Below are positions 21,381-37,728 of a DNA stretch of 64,000 bases, in pieces. Position 1 is the first letter of the stretch, and each line of letters starts with the position of its first letter. The notes under the pieces are model-generated. The model saw only the letters and a program-made list of their open reading frames with translations, was not told the DNA's origin and searched no databases. This DNA comes from Candidatus Pacearchaeota archaeon (GTDB taxonomy: Archaea; Nanobdellota; Nanobdellia; Pacearchaeales; GW2011-AR1), in the NCBI GenBank assembly GCA_018303945.1, contig JAGVXD010000019.1, forward strand, positions 2,975-66,974, read 5' to 3'. Made by a program: the position numbers and the translations under genes.

Positions 21381-21526
21381 AGTTGCCGAAGGCAAAAGAA
21401 ATTACCTCTTAATCTGCTGTTGCTTGACCTGAAGCGAAGCGGAAGGCACGAGTGGAGCAAGAAGCGACCTCGTGAGTGAAAGTTTTGTTCTCAGCCGATT
21501 TCGTAGCGTAGTTGCTGAAGAGAAAC
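21381..21526. repeat. structured element, upstream arm U1 (divergent type)
   Basis: Contains CCTCTTAATCTGCTGTT, GCGAAGC, the hairpin CACGAG..CTCGTG, and GTTCTCAGCCGATTTCG.AGCGTAGTTGCTGAAGAGAAA. Confidence 0.75.
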
Positions 21527-21540
21527 ATATTTAATATTAG
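21527..21540 (+). promoter_or_regulatory. TATA-like box about 20-30 nt upstream of the cassette ORF1 ATG
   Basis: ATATTTAATATTAG. The same spacing is seen for ORF2 and ORF3 and for the peptide gene on the - strand. Confidence 0.35.
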
Positions 21541-21556
21541 GCAAATTATCAATATT

Positions 21557-21922
21557 ATGAAATCCAAGATAAAATCTTTAAGCAGGAATGAGCAACGGAC
21601 AATTATTGTTTTTGAAATGAACAATCAAATTATAAAAATTATTGAAAAAACATTTAAGAAATTAAAGTCCGATTTTGAATTGTCAGATTATAAGAAAAAA
21701 TATGGAGATAAAATTATTGACAATTCTTGGGAGTTAAATAAGAAAGATGAGGACTTTAATTTTAGTCTAGTTGCGAAAAAAGATTTTGTGAAATTGAAAC
21801 TAAAAGCAAGCTTGGATTTCGTAAACAAGTTTTTGAAAATTCTGGAAAATGATACAGAATTTTCCGAATTATTGCCTAAGATTAAAGCAAAATTAGAAAG
21901 GCGAAAATTCAAATTTCTCTAA
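21557..21922 (+). CDS. cassette ORF1, Lys-rich hypothetical protein (121 aa from ATG 21557)
   Basis: ORF enclosed by the U1 and D1 arms. Its last codons and stop pair with U1. Confidence 0.5.
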   Translation: MKSKIKSLSRNEQRTIIVFEMNNQIIKIIEKTFKKLKSDFELSDYKKKYGDKIIDNSWELNKKDEDFNFSLVAKKDFVKLKLKASLDFVNKFLKILENDTEFSELLPKIKAKLERRKFKFL

Positions 21923-22260
21923 AGCAATTTCGTTAAAGCTTTGTTAGACAAAGTTGCATAGCAATTTTGTGAGTTTTCTCTGTGTGGCTTTAACGAAGCG
22001 AGAAATAACAAGGCTGAGAATTGCTCACAGCCAAAAGGACAGGAAGAGGGGAAACTAAAACTCTATGTCGGAAATTGGGGGGAAGGTGAGCAACCGCAGG
22101 CAAAACTTTCATTTTGGGCAACGTCGCGATTAAGGAAAGTTTTTTCTTCCTCGAGGAGCGAAGCGACGAAGAAGTTTTCAAAAATCCGTCATCAAGGGCG
22201 AAGCTCCATAAATTCAAATGTTTTAGAGAGGGAACTTTTATTTTCATTTATTAACTTTAA
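21918..22260. repeat. structured element, downstream arm D1
   Basis: AGCAATTTCGTTAAAGC...GCTTTAACGAAGCGAGAAATAACAAGGCTGAGAATTGC followed by a GCGAAGC-containing tail. Confidence 0.75.
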
Positions 22261-22311: not shown

Positions 22312-22965
22312 ATGAGATTATATCAAAGAATTATTGCGGGTGGATTAGTAGTTGCAGGTTTAGCTGGACTGCTTGGTTGCGATAATGATAGACCGAGAAC
22401 AGAAGAGCCAAAACCCAAATCTGTTGCTGCTGTAGAACTTTATCCGCATGGAAATGCAGGTGTAGCAATTGGAGATATAACAGGCGATAAATTGCCTGAT
22501 CTTGTTATTGCTGCTGAAAAGATTATAGAAAGAGAAGCAGTAGTTTATGTTTCTGACAATAGAGGAAATTATCAATTTGGAAATCCAACATTAATTGCTT
22601 CTGTTCCCCTTTATGGAGGTGGAAGAGAACTAATTTTTGGTGGAGGTTCTCCTGGTCTTGATGTTGCTTTAGGAGACTTTGATAATGACGGAGACTTAGA
22701 TATTTTAGTTGCAGCTGAGAAGCTTGATAAAAAAGAAGCGGCAATATTCAGAATAGAAAATCTAGGAAATAATACTTATTCAAATCCAAAACACGTTGGA
22801 GATGTTCCATTGGCTACTGCCGGAGGATTGAGTATAGCGACACAAGATATTAACCAAGATGGAAGAACAGACATATTAGTTTCTGCCGAGCATCCAAGCA
22901 AAAGAGAAGCAAATATGTATTTTTTTGAAAATGAAGGCAATAATTCTTTTGAAGCTGTAAAGTAA
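22312..22965 (+). CDS. FG-GAP/VCBS-repeat lipoprotein
   Basis: Lipobox-like LLGC, and three repeats of the form GD(I/F)xxDGxxDI(L)V.AE(K/H). Confidence 0.75.
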   Translation: MRLYQRIIAGGLVVAGLAGLLGCDNDRPRTEEPKPKSVAAVELYPHGNAGVAIGDITGDKLPDLVIAAEKIIEREAVVYVSDNRGNYQFGNPTLIASVPLYGGGRELIFGGGSPGLDVALGDFDNDGDLDILVAAEKLDKKEAAIFRIENLGNNTYSNPKHVGDVPLATAGGLSIATQDINQDGRTDILVSAEHPSKREANMYFFENEGNNSFEAVK

Positions 22966-22995
22966 ATTTCTTTTTCGCAGAAAAAGACTATCTGT
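22963..22995. repeat. 33-bp direct repeat DR-left (TAAATTTCTTTTTCGCAGAAAAAGACTATCTGT)
   Basis: Matches 25150-25182 at 32 of 33 positions. It contains the hairpin TCTTTTTC/GAAAAAGA. Confidence 0.85.
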
Positions 22996-23335
22996 CTGCA
23001 GGACTAAAAGTTCCCCCCCTTTCTATTTTTTAGGATTTTTGAAAATTGAAACTAACATCGGCATTAAGAGAAGTTTTCCGAAGGAAAATTTGGGCAAAAT
23101 CCTGCAAGGATTTTCCTCTTAATCGCTGTTATGTCTGGGTGAGCGAAGCGAAAGGGTGCAACCCTTCCCCGAGGATTTTTTCAGCAGAAAAAACCGCAGA
23201 GTTGTGAGATGGCACTTGTATTAATTTTAAAGATGGCACTTCAGGACGGCGGGACGCTGTCCAAATAAATAAGAGCTGTGCGCGTCTTTTTTGCTTCTTT
23301 TTTTCTAAAAAAGAAGATGGGCACTTTTCCGTTTG
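22996..23335. repeat. structured element X (U1-related) with AGATGGCACTT direct repeats
   Basis: Shares AAGTT..CCGAAGG, CCTCTTAATCGCTGTT and GAGCGAAGCGAAAGG with U1. AGATGGCACTT occurs at 23207 and 23231. Confidence 0.65.
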
Positions 23336-23338
23336 TTT

Positions 23339-24349
23339 TTAAAAATCCCTCCATTCAATCCCTAAATCCATAAAGTCTATTTCTGCAAATCTATTAAGAT
23401 TTATTCTGCCTTTTCTTGTAAGATATTTAAAAATTTCCATTGTTTGAATGTTTGCTACTGCTCCCGCAATTGGTCCAAGGTTTCCTGTTTGTCTAATGTC
23501 TCTTATTTTTTCTAAATCTTTTAAGGGGTCCATTCTTTTCTGATATTCTATGAAATCATCAAAAGTTTTAGTAACTCCTGGAATGATGATTGGACCAACC
23601 ATCCCTAAGTGTAGATTATATCCTCCTGCAACACAATAAGCAACTCCATGCTGATTAGCATATCCATCAATTATTTTTGTTGTTTCTACAACTGAAGGAG
23701 AATCAGCGCAATTTACTAAAAAATTACAACCAGAAACAATCTCTTCGAGATTTTGATTTGCATCTACTCTTTTTGTGAATGTCTTAATATTTGCATCTTT
23801 TAATTTTTCTTTTACAACATCAACTTTATACTTGCCAACATCACCAGAATCAAAAAATAATTGCCTGTTAAAATTACTATCATCTACAACGTCAGGGTCA
23901 GTAATTCTTATTTCTCCCGCCCCAATTTGGTATAGCCCATTTACAATCCAAGTTCCAATTCCACCTACTCCAAAGACAGCAACTTTAGAGTTCTCTATTC
24001 TTTTTTGTAGCTCTAAGGTTTCTTCCCTTGAATCTGTAAGTTCGTCCAAAAATAACAATTGCTTGTAATGTCTTCCTTTTTCTAAATCAGATTCATATCT
24101 TCTAATTATCCCTTCTTTTTCTAAAGCATTTAAACAAGCATTTATGTCTTGAGAACTATATTTAGAAGATAATCTTTCAGTTAAATCTTGTTCTGTTTGC
24201 TCAGAATCAAGAGAAGCAATCACATCCTTAACTAAAGAATCTACTTGAAATTTTTTTATTCTTCGTGTTGCAGTTGAAATAAAAATATAATTATCTTCGG
24301 TGTCTCTCAAGATATACGATGAATCTTTGAGTTTTAATCTACTCTTCAT
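23339..24349 (-). CDS. E1-like adenylyltransferase (ThiF/MoeB/MccB family) with N-terminal PqqD/RRE-like peptide-binding domain
   Basis: Nucleotide-binding loop FGVGGIGTWIVNGL plus DPDVVDDSNFNRQ. The roughly 95-aa N-terminal segment fits the wHTH/RRE pattern. No CxxC zinc site is seen. Confidence 0.8.
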   Translation of the reverse strand: MKSRLKLKDSSYILRDTEDNYIFISTATRRIKKFQVDSLVKDVIASLDSEQTEQDLTERLSSKYSSQDINACLNALEKEGIIRRYESDLEKGRHYKQLLFLDELTDSREETLELQKRIENSKVAVFGVGGIGTWIVNGLYQIGAGEIRITDPDVVDDSNFNRQLFFDSGDVGKYKVDVVKEKLKDANIKTFTKRVDANQNLEEIVSGCNFLVNCADSPSVVETTKIIDGYANQHGVAYCVAGGYNLHLGMVGPIIIPGVTKTFDDFIEYQKRMDPLKDLEKIRDIRQTGNLGPIAGAVANIQTMEIFKYLTRKGRINLNRFAEIDFMDLGIEWRDF

Positions 24350-24917
24350 TTGAAATTATCTCGCCATATTTAATCTCGCTGTTGTTTGGTTCAAACAAAA
24401 CTCCTCCATTTTCATCCAATGGAGCGATAATCTTATAGTTTTTTAATTTTTTTCTTAATAAAGAATTTTCTCTCAAATGCCAGCAACCAAGAATAATGAC
24501 TAGGGGTCTTTTTGTTTTTGATTTATATTCTAAAATCTTTGAAAGATGAAGTTTCTCTCTTTCTTCAACTATTTTATTTAATCTTTCTTCATCTTCTTTT
24601 ATAAGTTCTTTTTGATTCTTTATTTTTCTTTGCAGATTTTCGTCAAATCCAAAATTATGAAAATCAATTCCAATTAGTTTAATCTTTTTTTCAAAACACA
24701 ATTTTATCAATTTTTCAACTTCATCAAAAGAAGTCATATCAGAAATAAACTTTTTCTCCAGAATTTCTTTAACCTTATCTTCCGTATCTAATTTTAAATT
24801 TTCTAATTCTTCACTTAATACAAATTCTGGTTTTACTGATTTTATTATTTCCTCTTGTTTTAAAAAATCATCTACAAAAGAATGAGTACTACCTATAAGA
24901 ATAAAAGAAAAATTCAT
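24339..24917 (-). CDS. TraB/PrgY/GumN/Tiki-superfamily protein (putative peptide-processing enzyme)
   Basis: N-terminal ILIGSTHS, then EFVLSEE, then C-terminal ILGCWHL, which match the GxxH..E..GxxH signature. The ATG at 24917 with a GGAG upstream is preferred over 24947. Confidence 0.55.
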   Translation of the reverse strand: MNFSFILIGSTHSFVDDFLKQEEIIKSVKPEFVLSEELENLKLDTEDKVKEILEKKFISDMTSFDEVEKLIKLCFEKKIKLIGIDFHNFGFDENLQRKIKNQKELIKEDEERLNKIVEEREKLHLSKILEYKSKTKRPLVIILGCWHLRENSLLRKKLKNYKIIAPLDENGGVLFEPNNSEIKYGEIISNEE

Positions 24918-24937
24918 TTTTCTACTCCAAAGACAGA

Positions 24938-25087
24938 TTACATCCAATATTTAATACTTGTTCCGCCGGCATAAACCTTGTCTTCTACTTTTCGAAGTCC
25001 TTCATAAAGTGGTTTCTCCGCAAGCAAAGGTCTTGCTTCTTCTGTCCTTATTTCAACTTTTTCCAAAGTTCTTTCAAGGGTTTCCAT
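24938..25087 (-). CDS. 49-aa peptide, candidate precursor/substrate (METLERTLEKVEIRTEEARPLLAEKPLYEGLRKVEDKVYAGGTSIKYWM)
   Basis: Not in the ORF track. It is the first gene of the three-gene unit, has a TATA-like box 23-31 nt upstream, and carries an internal Gly-Gly 7 residues from the C-terminus. Confidence 0.45.
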   Translation of the reverse strand: METLERTLEKVEIRTEEARPLLAEKPLYEGLRKVEDKVYAGGTSIKYWM

Positions 25088-25109
25088 ACAATTGGGATAA
25101 TGATACTCC

Positions 25110-25118
25110 TTTATATAG
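25110..25118 (-). promoter_or_regulatory. TATA-like box (CTATATAAA on - strand) for the peptide/TraB/E1 unit
   Basis: Spacing to the ATG at 25087 is consistent with a leaderless archaeal transcript. Confidence 0.35.
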
Positions 25119-25149
25119 TTTATTGTTCTGAATGCGAAAAGTGCCCAAA

Positions 25150-25182
25150 TAAATTTCTTTTTCGAAGAAAAAGACTATCTGT
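25150..25182. repeat. 33-bp direct repeat DR-right
   Basis: TAAATTTCTTTTTCGAAGAAAAAGACTATCTGT, with one mismatch to 22963-22995. Confidence 0.85.
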
Positions 25183-25206
25183 TTTTCTGAAAGAAAAACC
25201 AAGCAC

Positions 25207-25242
25207 ACATCTCCAATTTAGGGGACATCTCCAATTTAGGGG
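25207..25242. repeat. perfect tandem repeat 2 x 18 nt (ACATCTCCAATTTAGGGG)
   Basis: Read directly. It lies between DR-right and the recombinase gene. Confidence 0.8.
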
Positions 25243-25326
25243 AGGGTGGTCGGGGGTATTGAAATGCCATCTTTAACTATCTTTTAATTCTAAAGTTTAG
25301 TGCCTTCGAACAATTAGACATAACAT

Positions 25327-25358
25327 TATGGTATCATGAATTAACTCATGATACCATA
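25327..25358. promoter_or_regulatory. 13-bp-arm palindrome TATGGTATCATGA-n6-TCATGATACCATA upstream of the recombinase gene (operator-like)
   Basis: Perfect inverted repeat about 55 nt upstream of the ATG at 25411. Confidence 0.45.
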
Positions 25359-25410: not shown

Positions 25411-26220
25411 ATGGATAAAGAAGAGGCATTAAGGAAGCTTGGGCAAGAGATTGAAATACGCAATTTTTCACGGAAAACTCTAAAGGGCTATGTTCATTCA
25501 GTAAGTAAGTTTTGCGATTATCTAAAAGACAAACCTTTTAGTCAGGAAGAGGTTAAGAATTATGTCCAAATGCAGATAAAAAAGCATAATCCCTCTTCTG
25601 TAGCTCACGAGATCTTTGCTATTCAATTTTTCTTTGATAAAGTCCTAGGCAGAAAAATTTATGTTCCAAGGCCAAAAAGAAACAAAACACTCCCAGATAT
25701 ATTAACAAGAGATGAAGCATTGGCATTGGTAAACGCGCCTGTGAACATAAAGCACAGATTGATACTAAAGCTACTCTATGGGTGTGGGCTAAGAGTCTCA
25801 GAGGTAATAAGCCTAAATAAAGACGATTTGAACTTCAATGAAAAGCTAATGCATGTCAGATTAGCAAAGGGTAAAAAAGATAGATTTGTCAGGATTCCAG
25901 ATTCAGTTACAAAAGAATTGGAAAATTACTGCAATTTATTAAATGAAGATGTCCTCTTCCCTTCAAACAGGGGCGGAAGACTGACAACTGCAACAATTCA
26001 GGCAATTGTTGAACAATCTGCTAAAAAGGCAGGTATCACAAAAGAGGTTTATCCTCATCTTTTAAGACATTCGTTTGCAACTCACTTACTAGAATCCGGC
26101 ACCGATTTACGAATAATCCAAAAATTGCTGGGACACTCAGATATAAAAACAACCCAGATTTACACTCGAATATCTCAAGCATCAATCAAAAATATAAAAA
26201 GTCCGCTTGATTCATCATAA
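25411..26220 (+). CDS. tyrosine recombinase, XerA/XerCD-like
   Basis: 269 aa with an N-terminal SAM-like domain, GCGLRVSEV, HLLRHSFATHLL, LGHSDIKTTQIYT, and the catalytic R, HxxR, H and Y. No IntI-type insertion is evident. Confidence 0.9.
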   Translation: MDKEEALRKLGQEIEIRNFSRKTLKGYVHSVSKFCDYLKDKPFSQEEVKNYVQMQIKKHNPSSVAHEIFAIQFFFDKVLGRKIYVPRPKRNKTLPDILTRDEALALVNAPVNIKHRLILKLLYGCGLRVSEVISLNKDDLNFNEKLMHVRLAKGKKDRFVRIPDSVTKELENYCNLLNEDVLFPSNRGGRLTTATIQAIVEQSAKKAGITKEVYPHLLRHSFATHLLESGTDLRIIQKLLGHSDIKTTQIYTRISQASIKNIKSPLDSS

Positions 26221-26221
26221 A

Positions 26222-28477
26222 ATGGCAACCGTAAAGGATTATATCCCTCTGGGAGATGTAAAAATAACGACTGAAAAGGAAGTTAGGCCAAAGCCGACCG
26301 TAGCAGAGCTCACCACAATAGAGTCTCCTGGAAAGCCGGTTCCTGCCTCTAATTTAGTGAAAAAAAGAACACTGGGTAAAAAAGCACCTGAAAAAGAAAA
26401 CAAGATAATTAAAGATTCTATATTGATAATTACAGAAAAACCACAGGCGGCGCAAAAAATAGCGCAGGCACTTGGCACCCCAATTAAACGCTTAGAAAAT
26501 GGAGTTCCTTATTACGAGCTTACAAGAAATGGAAAAATAATAACTGTAGCTTCCGCAGTAGGCCATTTATTCAATCTTACTTACAGCGCTGGACAGAAAG
26601 GCTGGCCAATTTTCAATCTAGAATGGCAACCGTCATATTCAAGAAAAACTGCGGCTTTCACAAAAAAATATTACGAAGTGCTTAAAAGACTCGTGCGTTC
26701 GGCTGAAACATTCATAGTTGCAACAGACTTTGATGTTGAAGGTGAAGTTATAGGATGGAACGTTGTGAGATTTATTGGTAAAAGAACTAATGCCCTGCGC
26801 ATGAAGTTTTCAACTCTCACAAATGATGAATTGGAAAATTCTTATGAAAATCCCATGTCGGAGCTTAATTGGGGCAACGCATATGCAGGAGAGACGCGTC
26901 ATTTTCTTGACTGGCTTTATGGTATCAATCTTTCCCGCGCTCTTATGTCAGCAATAAAGCAGACTGGCTCTTTTAAGGTTCTTTCAATAGGCAGAGTGCA
27001 GGGTCCGGCATTGAAAATAATAGCTGACAGAGAAAAAGAAATATCTGCGTTTAAGCCTGAGCCTTATTGGCAAATATTTGCGCTTGCAGAAAGCATTGAG
27101 TTCAAGCATCCAAAGGATATATTTGACAAATCGCTTCTTGAGCAGTTTAAAGACATAAAGGAAGCAAATGCCGAAACTGAAAAAAACAATGAGAATATCT
27201 CCCCGCCCGTTCCTTTTGACTTGACAACCTTGCAAAGAGAGGCTTATCGCCTTTTCAAGATGAATCCTTCTGAAACTTTAGCCACTACCCAAAAACTATA
27301 TCTTGAGGGAATTATATCCTATCCGCGAACTTCTTCTCAGAAGATTCCTGAAGCAATTCAGCCTAAAAAAATCTTGAAAGCTCTGGCAAAACACTTTCCA
27401 CAGGTAAAAGAAGCCACTAGAGAAAAACCTGTAGAAGGCAAAAAATCAGATCCTGCACATCCATCAATATATCCTACTGGAGAATATAGAAAATTAGTCG
27501 AAAAAGAAGAAAAAATATACAACCTTATAGTCCAGAGATTTATAGCTGCATTTTGTAAAGATGCTGTGGCGGCCAGAAAACACATCATCCTTACAGCGAA
27601 GAACGGCATTACTTTCACAGCAAACGCAACAACTCTGTCAGAAAAAGGATGGATGAAAGTTTATCCTTCATTTATTGAGGAAAGCTCTCTTCCTGACCTT
27701 AATGGTCTGGTTAAAATAGATGAAATTAAAAGTATTGAGAAAGAAACTCAGCCGCCTAATAGATACACTCCCGCCTCGCTCGTAGCAATTTTGGAAAAGA
27801 AAAACCTGGGAACAAAAGCAACACGTTCATCTATTATAGATACATTATTTAATCGTGGCTACTTAGACGGTACAAGCATCAAGGCAACACCTCTCGGAAT
27901 GCAGCTTATTTCTGCTCTTGAAAAATATTCTCCTATTATTATAGATGAAAACCTCACGAGAGAACTGGAAGAAGAATTGGAAAAAATTCAGGAGTCTAAA
28001 AAAGAATTCATGGAACAAGAGCAGAAAGTAATAAAGCATGCGCGGGAAATTATTACTAAAATTTCTGAAGAATTCAAGCAGAAAGAGAAAGAAATAGGAG
28101 AAGAGCTTCTGCAAGGACTTCAGACTCTCAGGCAGGAACAGAATGAATCAAATACTCTCCTTTCTTGTCCAACATGCAAAAAAGGCAACCTTAGGATACT
28201 CTATTCGAAGAAAACAAAGCGATATTTTGTAGCATGTTCTGCTTATCCAGATTGCAAGCAAACATATTCACTTCCCCCAAATGCTTTAATAAAAAAATCG
28301 GATAAACTATGCGAAGCAGACCAGTTCCCTAAACTTCTCGCAATTAGAAAAGGCAAGCGACCCTGGGAGTTCTGCTTCAATCCTAACTGCCCAATAGAAA
28401 AGAAAAAAAGAGAAGAATGGCAGGCACGCAAGGCATCTAATGAAAACCCTAACTCAAATCTGCTGGAAGAAGATTAA
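26222..28477 (+). CDS. topA: type IA DNA topoisomerase (archaeal Topo I/III-like) with C-terminal zinc ribbons
   Basis: Toprim motifs (ITEKPQAA, DFDVEGE), the active-site SYPRTSSQ, and C-terminal CPTC..CSAYPDC. Confidence 0.9.
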   Translation: MATVKDYIPLGDVKITTEKEVRPKPTVAELTTIESPGKPVPASNLVKKRTLGKKAPEKENKIIKDSILIITEKPQAAQKIAQALGTPIKRLENGVPYYELTRNGKIITVASAVGHLFNLTYSAGQKGWPIFNLEWQPSYSRKTAAFTKKYYEVLKRLVRSAETFIVATDFDVEGEVIGWNVVRFIGKRTNALRMKFSTLTNDELENSYENPMSELNWGNAYAGETRHFLDWLYGINLSRALMSAIKQTGSFKVLSIGRVQGPALKIIADREKEISAFKPEPYWQIFALAESIEFKHPKDIFDKSLLEQFKDIKEANAETEKNNENISPPVPFDLTTLQREAYRLFKMNPSETLATTQKLYLEGIISYPRTSSQKIPEAIQPKKILKALAKHFPQVKEATREKPVEGKKSDPAHPSIYPTGEYRKLVEKEEKIYNLIVQRFIAAFCKDAVAARKHIILTAKNGITFTANATTLSEKGWMKVYPSFIEESSLPDLNGLVKIDEIKSIEKETQPPNRYTPASLVAILEKKNLGTKATRSSIIDTLFNRGYLDGTSIKATPLGMQLISALEKYSPIIIDENLTRELEEELEKIQESKKEFMEQEQKVIKHAREIITKISEEFKQKEKEIGEELLQGLQTLRQEQNESNTLLSCPTCKKGNLRILYSKKTKRYFVACSAYPDCKQTYSLPPNALIKKSDKLCEADQFPKLLAIRKGKRPWEFCFNPNCPIEKKKREEWQARKASNENPNSNLLEED

Positions 28478-37500: not shown

Positions 37501-37728
37501 TTCATCAGCAATTTCGTTTAAGCAAGCGATTGTGCGTTAACGAAGTTCGCACCCAGCGGTTAAGCGGAGCAAGAAATAACAAGGCTGAGAATTGCAAGCC
37601 GAAAGGGGCAAGAGTTTACAGGCAATAATTAATTTGTTACTATGAAAACTCTGAAGGGAAAGGGGCTTGTTTGTCTAGGGGATTTGCAACCCGAGTGCAA
37701 CGAGGGCAAAGCAAAAGTTTGGTTAATC
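37501..37728. repeat. structured element, downstream arm D2
   Basis: About 93 nt are identical to D3 (CAGCAATTTCGTTTAAGC...GGCTGAGAATTGCAA). The distal part is conserved and ends in GGTTAATC. Confidence 0.85.

Follow-up and report, generated by a model that had tools for sequence, protein, structure and literature searches.

Why do two nearly identical direct repeats (DR) of 33 nucleotides (nt) flank a small operon next to a tyrosine recombinase gene in the genome of a Candidatus Pacearchaeota archaeon? The repeats lie in a stretch of 64,000 nt, here called the window, from contig JAGVXD010000019.1 of assembly GCA_018303945.1, a genome that carries intron-bearing tRNAs, an archaeal mark. From left to right, the locus consists of an FG-GAP repeat protein gene (+), a structured element that we term X, a ThiF/E1-like gene (-), a gene for a protein of 192/202 amino acids (aa; -), a 49-aa open reading frame (ORF; -), the right repeat, a palindrome, the recombinase gene (+) and a topoisomerase IA gene (+). 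A preliminary description of this DNA took the repeats for the attL and attR sites left by the insertion of one element. We suggest that they are the head boxes, called hp1, of two consecutive cassette-end elements in an integron-like array driven by a Xer-type recombinase, a reading that we regard as probable but far from secure.

The repeat pair

The 33-mer TAAATTTCTTTTTCG(C/A)AGAAAAAGACTATCTGT is found at positions 22963 to 22995 (DR-left) and 25150 to 25182 (DR-right) of the forward strand. The two copies match at 32 of 33 positions, as first described, and at 34/36 once the AA(G/A) on their left side is counted. They are spaced 2187 nt apart, in agreement with the reported bracket of about 2.2 kb, and the chance expectation for such a repeat pair is 0.00 (100 shuffles). 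DR-left, the hp1 box of the left element, is made up of TAA, ATTTC, the hairpin TCTTTTTC-GCA-GAAAAAGA and CTATCTGT. The sole mismatch between the copies is the middle base of the triloop, TCTTTTTC-G(C/A)A-GAAAAAGA, the loop of DR-right being GAA. The left copy had been placed immediately after the stop codon of the FG-GAP gene; its first three bases (TAA, 22963-22965) are that stop codon itself. The recombinase gene begins 228 nt to the right of DR-right, close to the 230 bp given before.

The preliminary description offered a shared, generic intrinsic terminator hairpin as the alternative to an insertion, to be recognised by its recurrence after many unrelated genes. In form hp1 would suit such a terminator, as its hairpin has T5 runs on either strand and comes right behind a stop codon. 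The 33-mer is nevertheless present in two copies only among approximately 800 kb of genes (whole assembly of 803,700 bases in 22 contigs, up to 3 mismatches), DR-right ends no gene on either strand, and a terminator scan does not detect hp1. The box is furthermore conserved letter for letter across genera, together with 60-150 nt downstream of it. We give a generic terminator next to no credence.

The hp1 box in other genomes and metagenomes

In the following, G000 is this genome, other G labels are related genomes and L labels are contigs. A search of 151 related genomes with up to 2 mismatches found the box in six other genera (G022, G062, G084, G100, G105 and G141, one of them from another family), at 1-2 copies per genome. 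The reversed pattern, used as a control on the same genomes, gave 5 matches, at the 3-mismatch level. The array of G022 holds a third, stem-swapped copy, and the overall copy number per genome is 1-3.

A scan of metagenome contigs for exact matches to the 24-mer AAATTTCTTTTTCGNAGAAAAAGAC returned 29 contigs of 26-36% G+C from marine and other environmental assemblies, with one copy each. Their loop base varies between A, C and T. What is kept is the right flank, which consists of ACTATCTGT, a second mini-hairpin, a C-run and then the farther box AAAAATTGAAWMTAAC; the left flank differs wholly from contig to contig. The second mini-hairpin covaries between contigs (GTCC-GAA-GGAC, GTGC-GTA-GCAC, GTCT-GCA-GGAC). 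In several contigs the upstream ORF terminates at the TAA of TAAATTTC.

The variants of hp1 preserve the hairpin, either by double changes (CTTTTAC-GAA-GTAAAAG) or by a swap of the whole stem (CAAAACT-GAA-AGTTTTG in G022). In an alignment of 19 sequences 99.3% of the helix cells are paired, and both-side changes are found in 6 of the 8 pairs.

The 33-mer of DR-left is identical at 33/33 positions in several contigs of other organisms with unrelated flanks, and that of DR-right is identical in another species (contig L071). The two copies of the window are thus no more alike than copies from different organisms, and we take their near-identity to reflect functional constraint and not a recent duplication. 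DR-right of one strain variant carries two further changes, at 25176 and 25179, which shows an absence of concerted evolution between the two copies.

P elements and their borders

We use the term P element for the block that extends from hp1 to the AAC box. P elements are 94-175 nt long and contain, in this order, hp1, ACTATCTGT, hairpin 2, a run of C or G, and a box with AAC at its end. The window holds two of them on the forward strand. P-A (22963-23056, 94 nt) contains hp1, ACTATCTGT, the mini-hairpin GTCTGCAGGAC, TAAAAGTTCCCCCCC and the box GAAAATTGAAACTAAC, whose AAC ends at 23056. P-B (25150-25324, 175 nt), which has DR-right as its hp1 box, contains hp1, the hairpin TTTTTCT-GAA-AGAAAAA, CCAAGCACACATCTCCAATTTAGGGG, GGGTGGTCGGGGG, AAATGCCATCTTT and the box GAACAATTAGACATAAC, whose AAC ends at 25324.

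P-A is 91.4% identical to its copy in G100, a different genus, compared with 66% for the adjoining recombinase gene and 64% for the topoisomerase gene (DNA). Upstream of P-A in G100 an unrelated gene of 324 aa stands in the place of the FG-GAP gene, and homology begins at the TAA. Since this unrelated gene lies between the same two arms, the FG-GAP gene occupies a cassette slot. The architecture of P-A recurs in metagenome contigs, and its box is identical to the one that abuts the palindrome of G020.

P-B is 94.3% (148/157) identical to the second copy in G022 and 85% identical to that in G062, whereas the recombinases next to P-B in G000 and G022 share 36% identity at the protein level and 55% at the DNA level. 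Beyond its AAC, P-B continues into five different sequences in five lineages (G000, G022, L071, G062 and G105). G000 continues with its palindrome and recombinase gene, G022 with a different palindrome and a Xer-like gene, L071 and G062 with palindromes of the X type, and G105 with what is left of a palindrome. The left extension of P-B is resembled in contig L071. Four contigs of marine origin share 99.9-100% identity for 3.7 kb or more, comprising a gene, hp1 and P, up to the end of ...ATATAAC, and are unrelated from the next base.

Variation of cassette content at a fixed junction, a criterion for integrons, is accordingly found in the marine contigs and in the P-B lineages; in the window's own species it was not observed at that junction. 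Related sequences part either where the box begins on its 5' side (TAA) or behind the AAC 94-175 nt downstream, and not inside the 33-mer. In short, P elements are low in copy number, are conserved far beyond their neighbour genes, have sharp borders at TAA and AAC, and are accompanied by unrelated cargo between strains and genera.

P-B is 175 nt long in this assembly and 157 nt in all other strains. A perfect tandem repeat of 2 x 18 nt, ACATCTCCAATTTAGGGG, at 25207-25242 is peculiar to this assembly; the 18-mer is present as a single copy in 5/5 other same-species contigs compared, and also in P-B of other genera.

The recombinase and its palindrome

The recombinase, here called Rec, is a XerA-family tyrosine recombinase paralogue of 269 aa (Pfam) encoded at 25411-26220 (+). 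It passes the NCBIfam XerA model NF040815 with 239.3 bits (cut-off 220). The genome also encodes a second XerA-like protein, 38% identical to Rec, and a third, distant integrase. Rec orthologues of 57-65% identity are present in 9/60 relatives (10/61 genomes including this one), while the other XerA-like type is near-universal among the relatives. Upstream of 8/9 Rec orthologues no more than 600 nt remain before the contig ends, which points to a region that assemblers cannot resolve.

Rec overlaps the topoisomerase IA gene (26207-28477, +). The two genes overlap or abut and are kept together in at least 5 genomes, including G020, G019, G032 and G100, which suggests that they form a functional pair. 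We also tried to sort the P-adjacent recombinases of G022 and L080 into one or the other paralogue type of G000; pairwise identities of 36-42% were uninformative.

Between P-B and Rec lies a perfect 13-6-13 palindrome (25327-25358), TATGGTATCATGA-ATTAAC-TCATGATACCATA, present in a single copy in the genome. The 28-bp dif arrangement, in which a 6-nt spacer separates a pair of 11-nt inverted repeats, is found here as TGGTATCATGA-ATTAAC-TCATGATACCA, perfect and once in the assembly. A palindrome of the same position and geometry, and of differing sequence, is present upstream of every Rec orthologue with enough upstream sequence. It is preceded by TAAC in 6/7 genomes read and by CATAAA in G100. 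The palindrome is a candidate core site of the adjacent recombinase, comparable to attI, although it may instead be the dif site of the chromosome.

The only other perfect 11-6-11 palindrome of the assembly, AAATAGAAAGG-AATAAC-CCTTTCTATTT at C16:37923-37950, has a spacer that likewise ends in TAAC. We considered it as a second site and dismissed it, as it is intergenic and looks like an ordinary hairpin. The 33-mer itself was rejected as a dif-like core owing to its wrong geometry (8-bp stem, 3-nt loop).

Element X and the cargo genes

Element X (23057-23335, +) is a structured arm that follows P-A directly. It contains a palindrome, GCGAAGC, two copies of AGATGGCACTT (23207 and 23231), a T-rich hairpin (23296-23316) and GGGCACTTTTC (23319-23329). 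The palindrome is imperfect, extends over 23053-23131 and begins inside the TAAC of P-A (TAAC-ATCGGCATTAAGAG...CCTCTTAATCGC-TGTTA); it encloses two inner hairpins with GNA triloops. The predicted DNA fold of 23041-23140 has -15.5 kcal/mol (z -2.96). Homologous X elements in G100 and G022 show compensatory changes, ATTAAGAG/CTCTTAAT vs ATTTAGAG/CTCTAAAT. In G100 X is found at the same place behind P-A, followed by a single gene of 239 aa where the ThiF operon is located here. X and the operon are thus not one indivisible unit, contrary to the earlier view of X and the three genes as a single insert.

Three genes on the minus strand make up the operon. The first is the 49-aa ORF (24938-25087), the second (24339-24947) encodes the protein of 192/202 aa, which has no assigned family and a weak, sub-threshold TraB/PrgY/GumN match, and the last (23339-24349) encodes a ThiF/E1-like adenylyltransferase of 336 aa (Pfam ThiF, 1.3e-38). 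A TATA-like sequence, ACTATATAAA, on the minus strand at 25110-25119 may serve as the operon promoter. Homologues of the ThiF gene are present in 2/60 relatives, in different contexts. A PADLOC search with the three cargo proteins gave nothing beyond generic E1-domain similarity. The FG-GAP repeat protein, encoded at 22312-22965 (+), has 217 aa (Pfam FG-GAP_3, 1.5e-19).

A pair of 11-nt inverted repeats closes the operon slot. Its left copy is at 23319-23329 as reported; the right copy, GAAAAGTGCCC, is at 25136-25146 and not at 25134-25144. Similarly, CCAAATAAAT does occur twice, at 23261-23270, given before as 23256-23265, and at 25145-25154. Three direct copies of the motif (A)GATGG(G)CA(C/T)TT stand where X ends, and two inverted copies follow on the right side of the operon (23207-23241, 23315-23329, 25136-25146 and 25262-25274); it may be a protein-binding motif. 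GGGCACTTCC is also present after hairpin 2 in contigs L059 and L064. The T-rich hairpin that ends X (CTTTTTTGCTTCTTTTTTTCTAAAAAAGAAG, 23286-23316) has a 93.5% identical copy at C10:109-139 of the genome, near the contig start, and a 24-nt stretch at 22001-22024 recurs at positions 37572 and 40711 of the window; these recurrences point to further arm copies. An origin-recognition-box reading of CTCCAATTTAGGGG found no Orc1/Cdc6 gene nearby.

Layout in relatives and strains

The interval between the metallophosphoesterase gene and the Rec-topoisomerase pair is 4154 nt here and 690 nt in G020, where the box AAAATTGAAACTAAC directly abuts the palindrome. We regard G020 as a cross-genus analogue of an empty platform, with no cassette. 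Approximately 70-150 nt upstream of Rec, G020 (contig L037) carries AAAGTTTTGCATCAG(G/C)AAAATTGAAACTAA twice in tandem at a distance of about 74 nt. Both copies end in ATTGAAAC, and we read them as a gene-less mini-unit between two AAC boxes. We had also considered the AAAATTGAAAC boxes of these two copies as CRISPR-repeat ends and rejected this, as both an array and a cas context are absent. In G022 the order is P, X, approximately 9.6 kb of minus-strand genes, P, palindrome and Xer-like gene, and the P repeats are about 110 nt long.

Farther to the left, positions 21514-21925 of the window contain a 121/136-aa ORF where G013 (contig L042, positions 317-327) has 9 nt between conserved arm pieces. 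The arm pieces of G013 form an "empty bracket" upstream of its recombinase. The ORF-bearing insert ends in AATTTCTCTAAAGC, which is followed directly by AATTTCGTTAAAGC.

Same-species contigs were obtained by exact protein look-up with the FG-GAP protein, Rec, the 192-aa protein and strain variants. The strain variants differ solely on the left side, where their contigs end, and DR-right is present in all of them; contig L108 ends at 23078. Contig L050 (from ERZ27254763) has DR-right and lacks X, P-A and the FG-GAP gene. It is a mosaic, in which the ThiF gene is approximately 10% diverged over its 3' 750 nt, the sequence is identical from about 24100 on, and an NTP_transf_2 (nucleotidyltransferase) gene overlaps the ThiF stop. 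The switch near 24100 resembles homologous recombination.

These layouts bear on the original proposal of a 2.2-kb integrative element made up of X and the three genes, in which the 33-mer would be the att core, duplicated and the place of crossover. The proposal accounts for two near-perfect, genome-unique direct repeats that stand one element apart, with a tyrosine recombinase gene close by. What it does not accommodate is the presence of the same 33-mer at unrelated loci of other organisms, X with other cargo in G100, homology borders that fall at TAA and AAC outside the core, a strain (L050) that keeps DR-right without DR-left or X, and a recombinase encoded outside the bracket. The empty site that such an insertion predicts was not found in the same-species contigs examined (22 per look-up). 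We therefore consider a single insertion very unlikely, and a locus-specific attL/attR duplication is not supported. The proposal is partly borne out, since the repeat is a site that is specific, low in copy number and connected with a recombinase-linked variable region; the proposed origin, crossover point and unit do not stand.

Cassette exchange or RNA function

We suggest that the locus is a cassette array that would extend from the core metallophosphoesterase gene to Rec. Each P element, starting with TAA-ATTTC and a C-GNA-G triloop hairpin and ending in the ...AAC box, would mark the end of a cassette. One cassette unit would run from AAC to AAC (23057-25324) and comprise arm X, the ThiF/E1-like three-gene operon and P-B. 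The FG-GAP gene, in a unit ending in P-A, and probably the preceding 121-aa gene would be further cassettes, and the palindrome at 25327-25358 would be the terminal, recombinase-proximal site. The AAC junction may be the place where the Xer-like recombinase swaps cassettes, and its substrate would probably be folded DNA, such as integron integrases use at attC. The hp1 box may act as an accessory site element, for example a protein-binding hairpin, and could also provide a stop codon and a two-way T-run terminator by which the cassette is insulated. On this reading the 2187-nt period is one cassette length, measured between the most conserved boxes of successive cassette ends. We infer recombination at the locus from sequence comparison only.

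Several observations weigh against cassette exchange. Among the same-species contigs there was no recombination product, empty site or circle, every such contig with the FG-GAP gene has the layout of the window, and the left-junction variants break at 23219/20 (L051) and at 23338/9 and about 24100 (L050), which is neither at AAC nor at hp1. Rec scores 198 bits against the integron-integrase model TIGR02249 (cut-off 265), in two stretches that skip approximately positions 185-236 of the model; the skipped part is the IntI-specific insert, so Rec is without it. The cargo has a putative TATA-like promoter of its own and may be in either orientation, unlike classical cassettes. The metagenome contigs were drawn by exact match, and the invariance of the box is overstated by that sample. 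The predicted DNA stability of hp1 is ordinary (-4.8 kcal/mol, z -1.2 to -1.7), so the constraint on it looks sequence-specific. The hp1 box may function as an accessory binding site or as a signal in folded DNA, but it may also act as a terminator-insulator or belong to an RNA. The high conservation of P elements, too, could equally stem from an RNA function.

The last point leads to the main competing explanation, that transcription of P and X yields structured untranslated regions or small RNAs, acting as terminator-insulators, in mRNA end-pairing or as processing signals, and that the genes between them are swapped by homologous recombination via the conserved arms. The hairpins of hp1, hp2 and X all covary, hp1 has T-runs on both strands and a stop codon inside the box, and a conservation of 94% over a non-coding block of 157 nt is typical of functional RNAs. 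The arms across the genes are also complementary (22225-22240 with 23005-23020, and 23319-23329 with 25136-25146). It does not explain, however, why breakpoints in several lineages, independent of one another, coincide at a single nucleotide after AAC and are not spread across the arms, nor the recurrent association with Xer-like genes that have a dif-like palindrome, nor the presence of only 1-3 copies per genome. Rfam searches at gathering and permissive thresholds found no family at the locus. The C-GNA-G triloop is moreover a classic stable DNA mini-hairpin, and not a common RNA loop. We judge an RNA function with homologous swapping to be unlikely, while it retains some weight.

Extending the cassette reading, we tentatively propose a self-standing gene-capture platform of DPANN archaea, built on a Xer paralogue, in which cassettes of 1 to approximately 10 kb are bounded by universal P adaptors and folded arms; this is plausible and somewhat doubtful. 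That the P element beside the recombinase gene gives rise to an RNA cofactor by which the enzyme is programmed is a speculation we consider highly improbable.

Significance

Full-text literature searches gave no description of Xer-linked cassettes of this kind in DPANN archaea. Should the cassette reading hold, host-dependent, genome-reduced archaea would own a dedicated means of shuffling accessory genes, in this case those for an FG-GAP surface protein and an operon for E1-like peptide modification, by way of a Xer-type enzyme and not an integron integrase. This would bear on the origin of integrons from Xer-like ancestors, and on the hypervariable regions of DPANN genomes, which also break assemblies. 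On the platform reading, adaptors that are 85-94% identical across genera, compared with 36% for the recombinases, would mean that adaptors are transferred horizontally from lineage to lineage together with their cargo. Both the 33-nt box and the AAC junction provide searchable markers and precise oligonucleotide substrates for biochemistry.

Comparison with known systems

Three known systems resemble the locus in part. With attL/attR-bounded elements of the lambda and pNOB8 types it shares direct repeats of att length that flank accessory genes near a tyrosine recombinase. It differs in that the repeat is a family-wide box, the recombinase lies outside, an empty site is lacking, and there is no tRNA target, the tRNA search having found none at the locus.

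With the Xer/dif system and the elements that exploit it (IMEX, pdif) the locus shares a XerA-family enzyme, an 11-6-11 palindrome and the lack of an integrase inside the mobile DNA. The palindrome fits the description of archaeal dif sites, which have an 11-6-11 geometry (PMC8371274). The 33-mer, on the other hand, is without dif geometry, and Rec is a patchy second paralogue. IMEX and pdif elements are flanked by dif-like sites; the palindrome is present here in one copy, and the flanking repeat is hp1.

The closest likeness is to integrons, with clear differences. Archaeal integrons keep the additional domain of IntI and canonical attC sites (Ghaly et al. 2022; PMC9668308). Rec, by comparison, is a XerA-family protein of 269 aa without the IntI-specific additional domain around patch III. 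The proximal site is a dif-like perfect palindrome, the boundary consists of a P element of 94-175 nt and an arm of 280-340 nt and is far longer than attC, and an operon under a putative promoter of its own can be the cargo, facing either way. The shared features are unrelated genes parted by conserved, structure-bearing repeats that are more alike than the flanking genes, a tyrosine recombinase at one end whose gene is transcribed divergently from the proximal cassette, and replacement beyond the junction at the population level. The VCR repeats of Vibrio superintegrons are likewise highly uniform. Sites of the attC type are recognised as imperfect palindromes of the form RYYYAAC...GTTRRRY that fold as single strands, with at least 2 within 4 kb. 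The ...AAC / GTT... junctions are common to both systems, and the palindrome of X, AACTAAC...GTTATGT, agrees with this form at 6/7 positions on each side.

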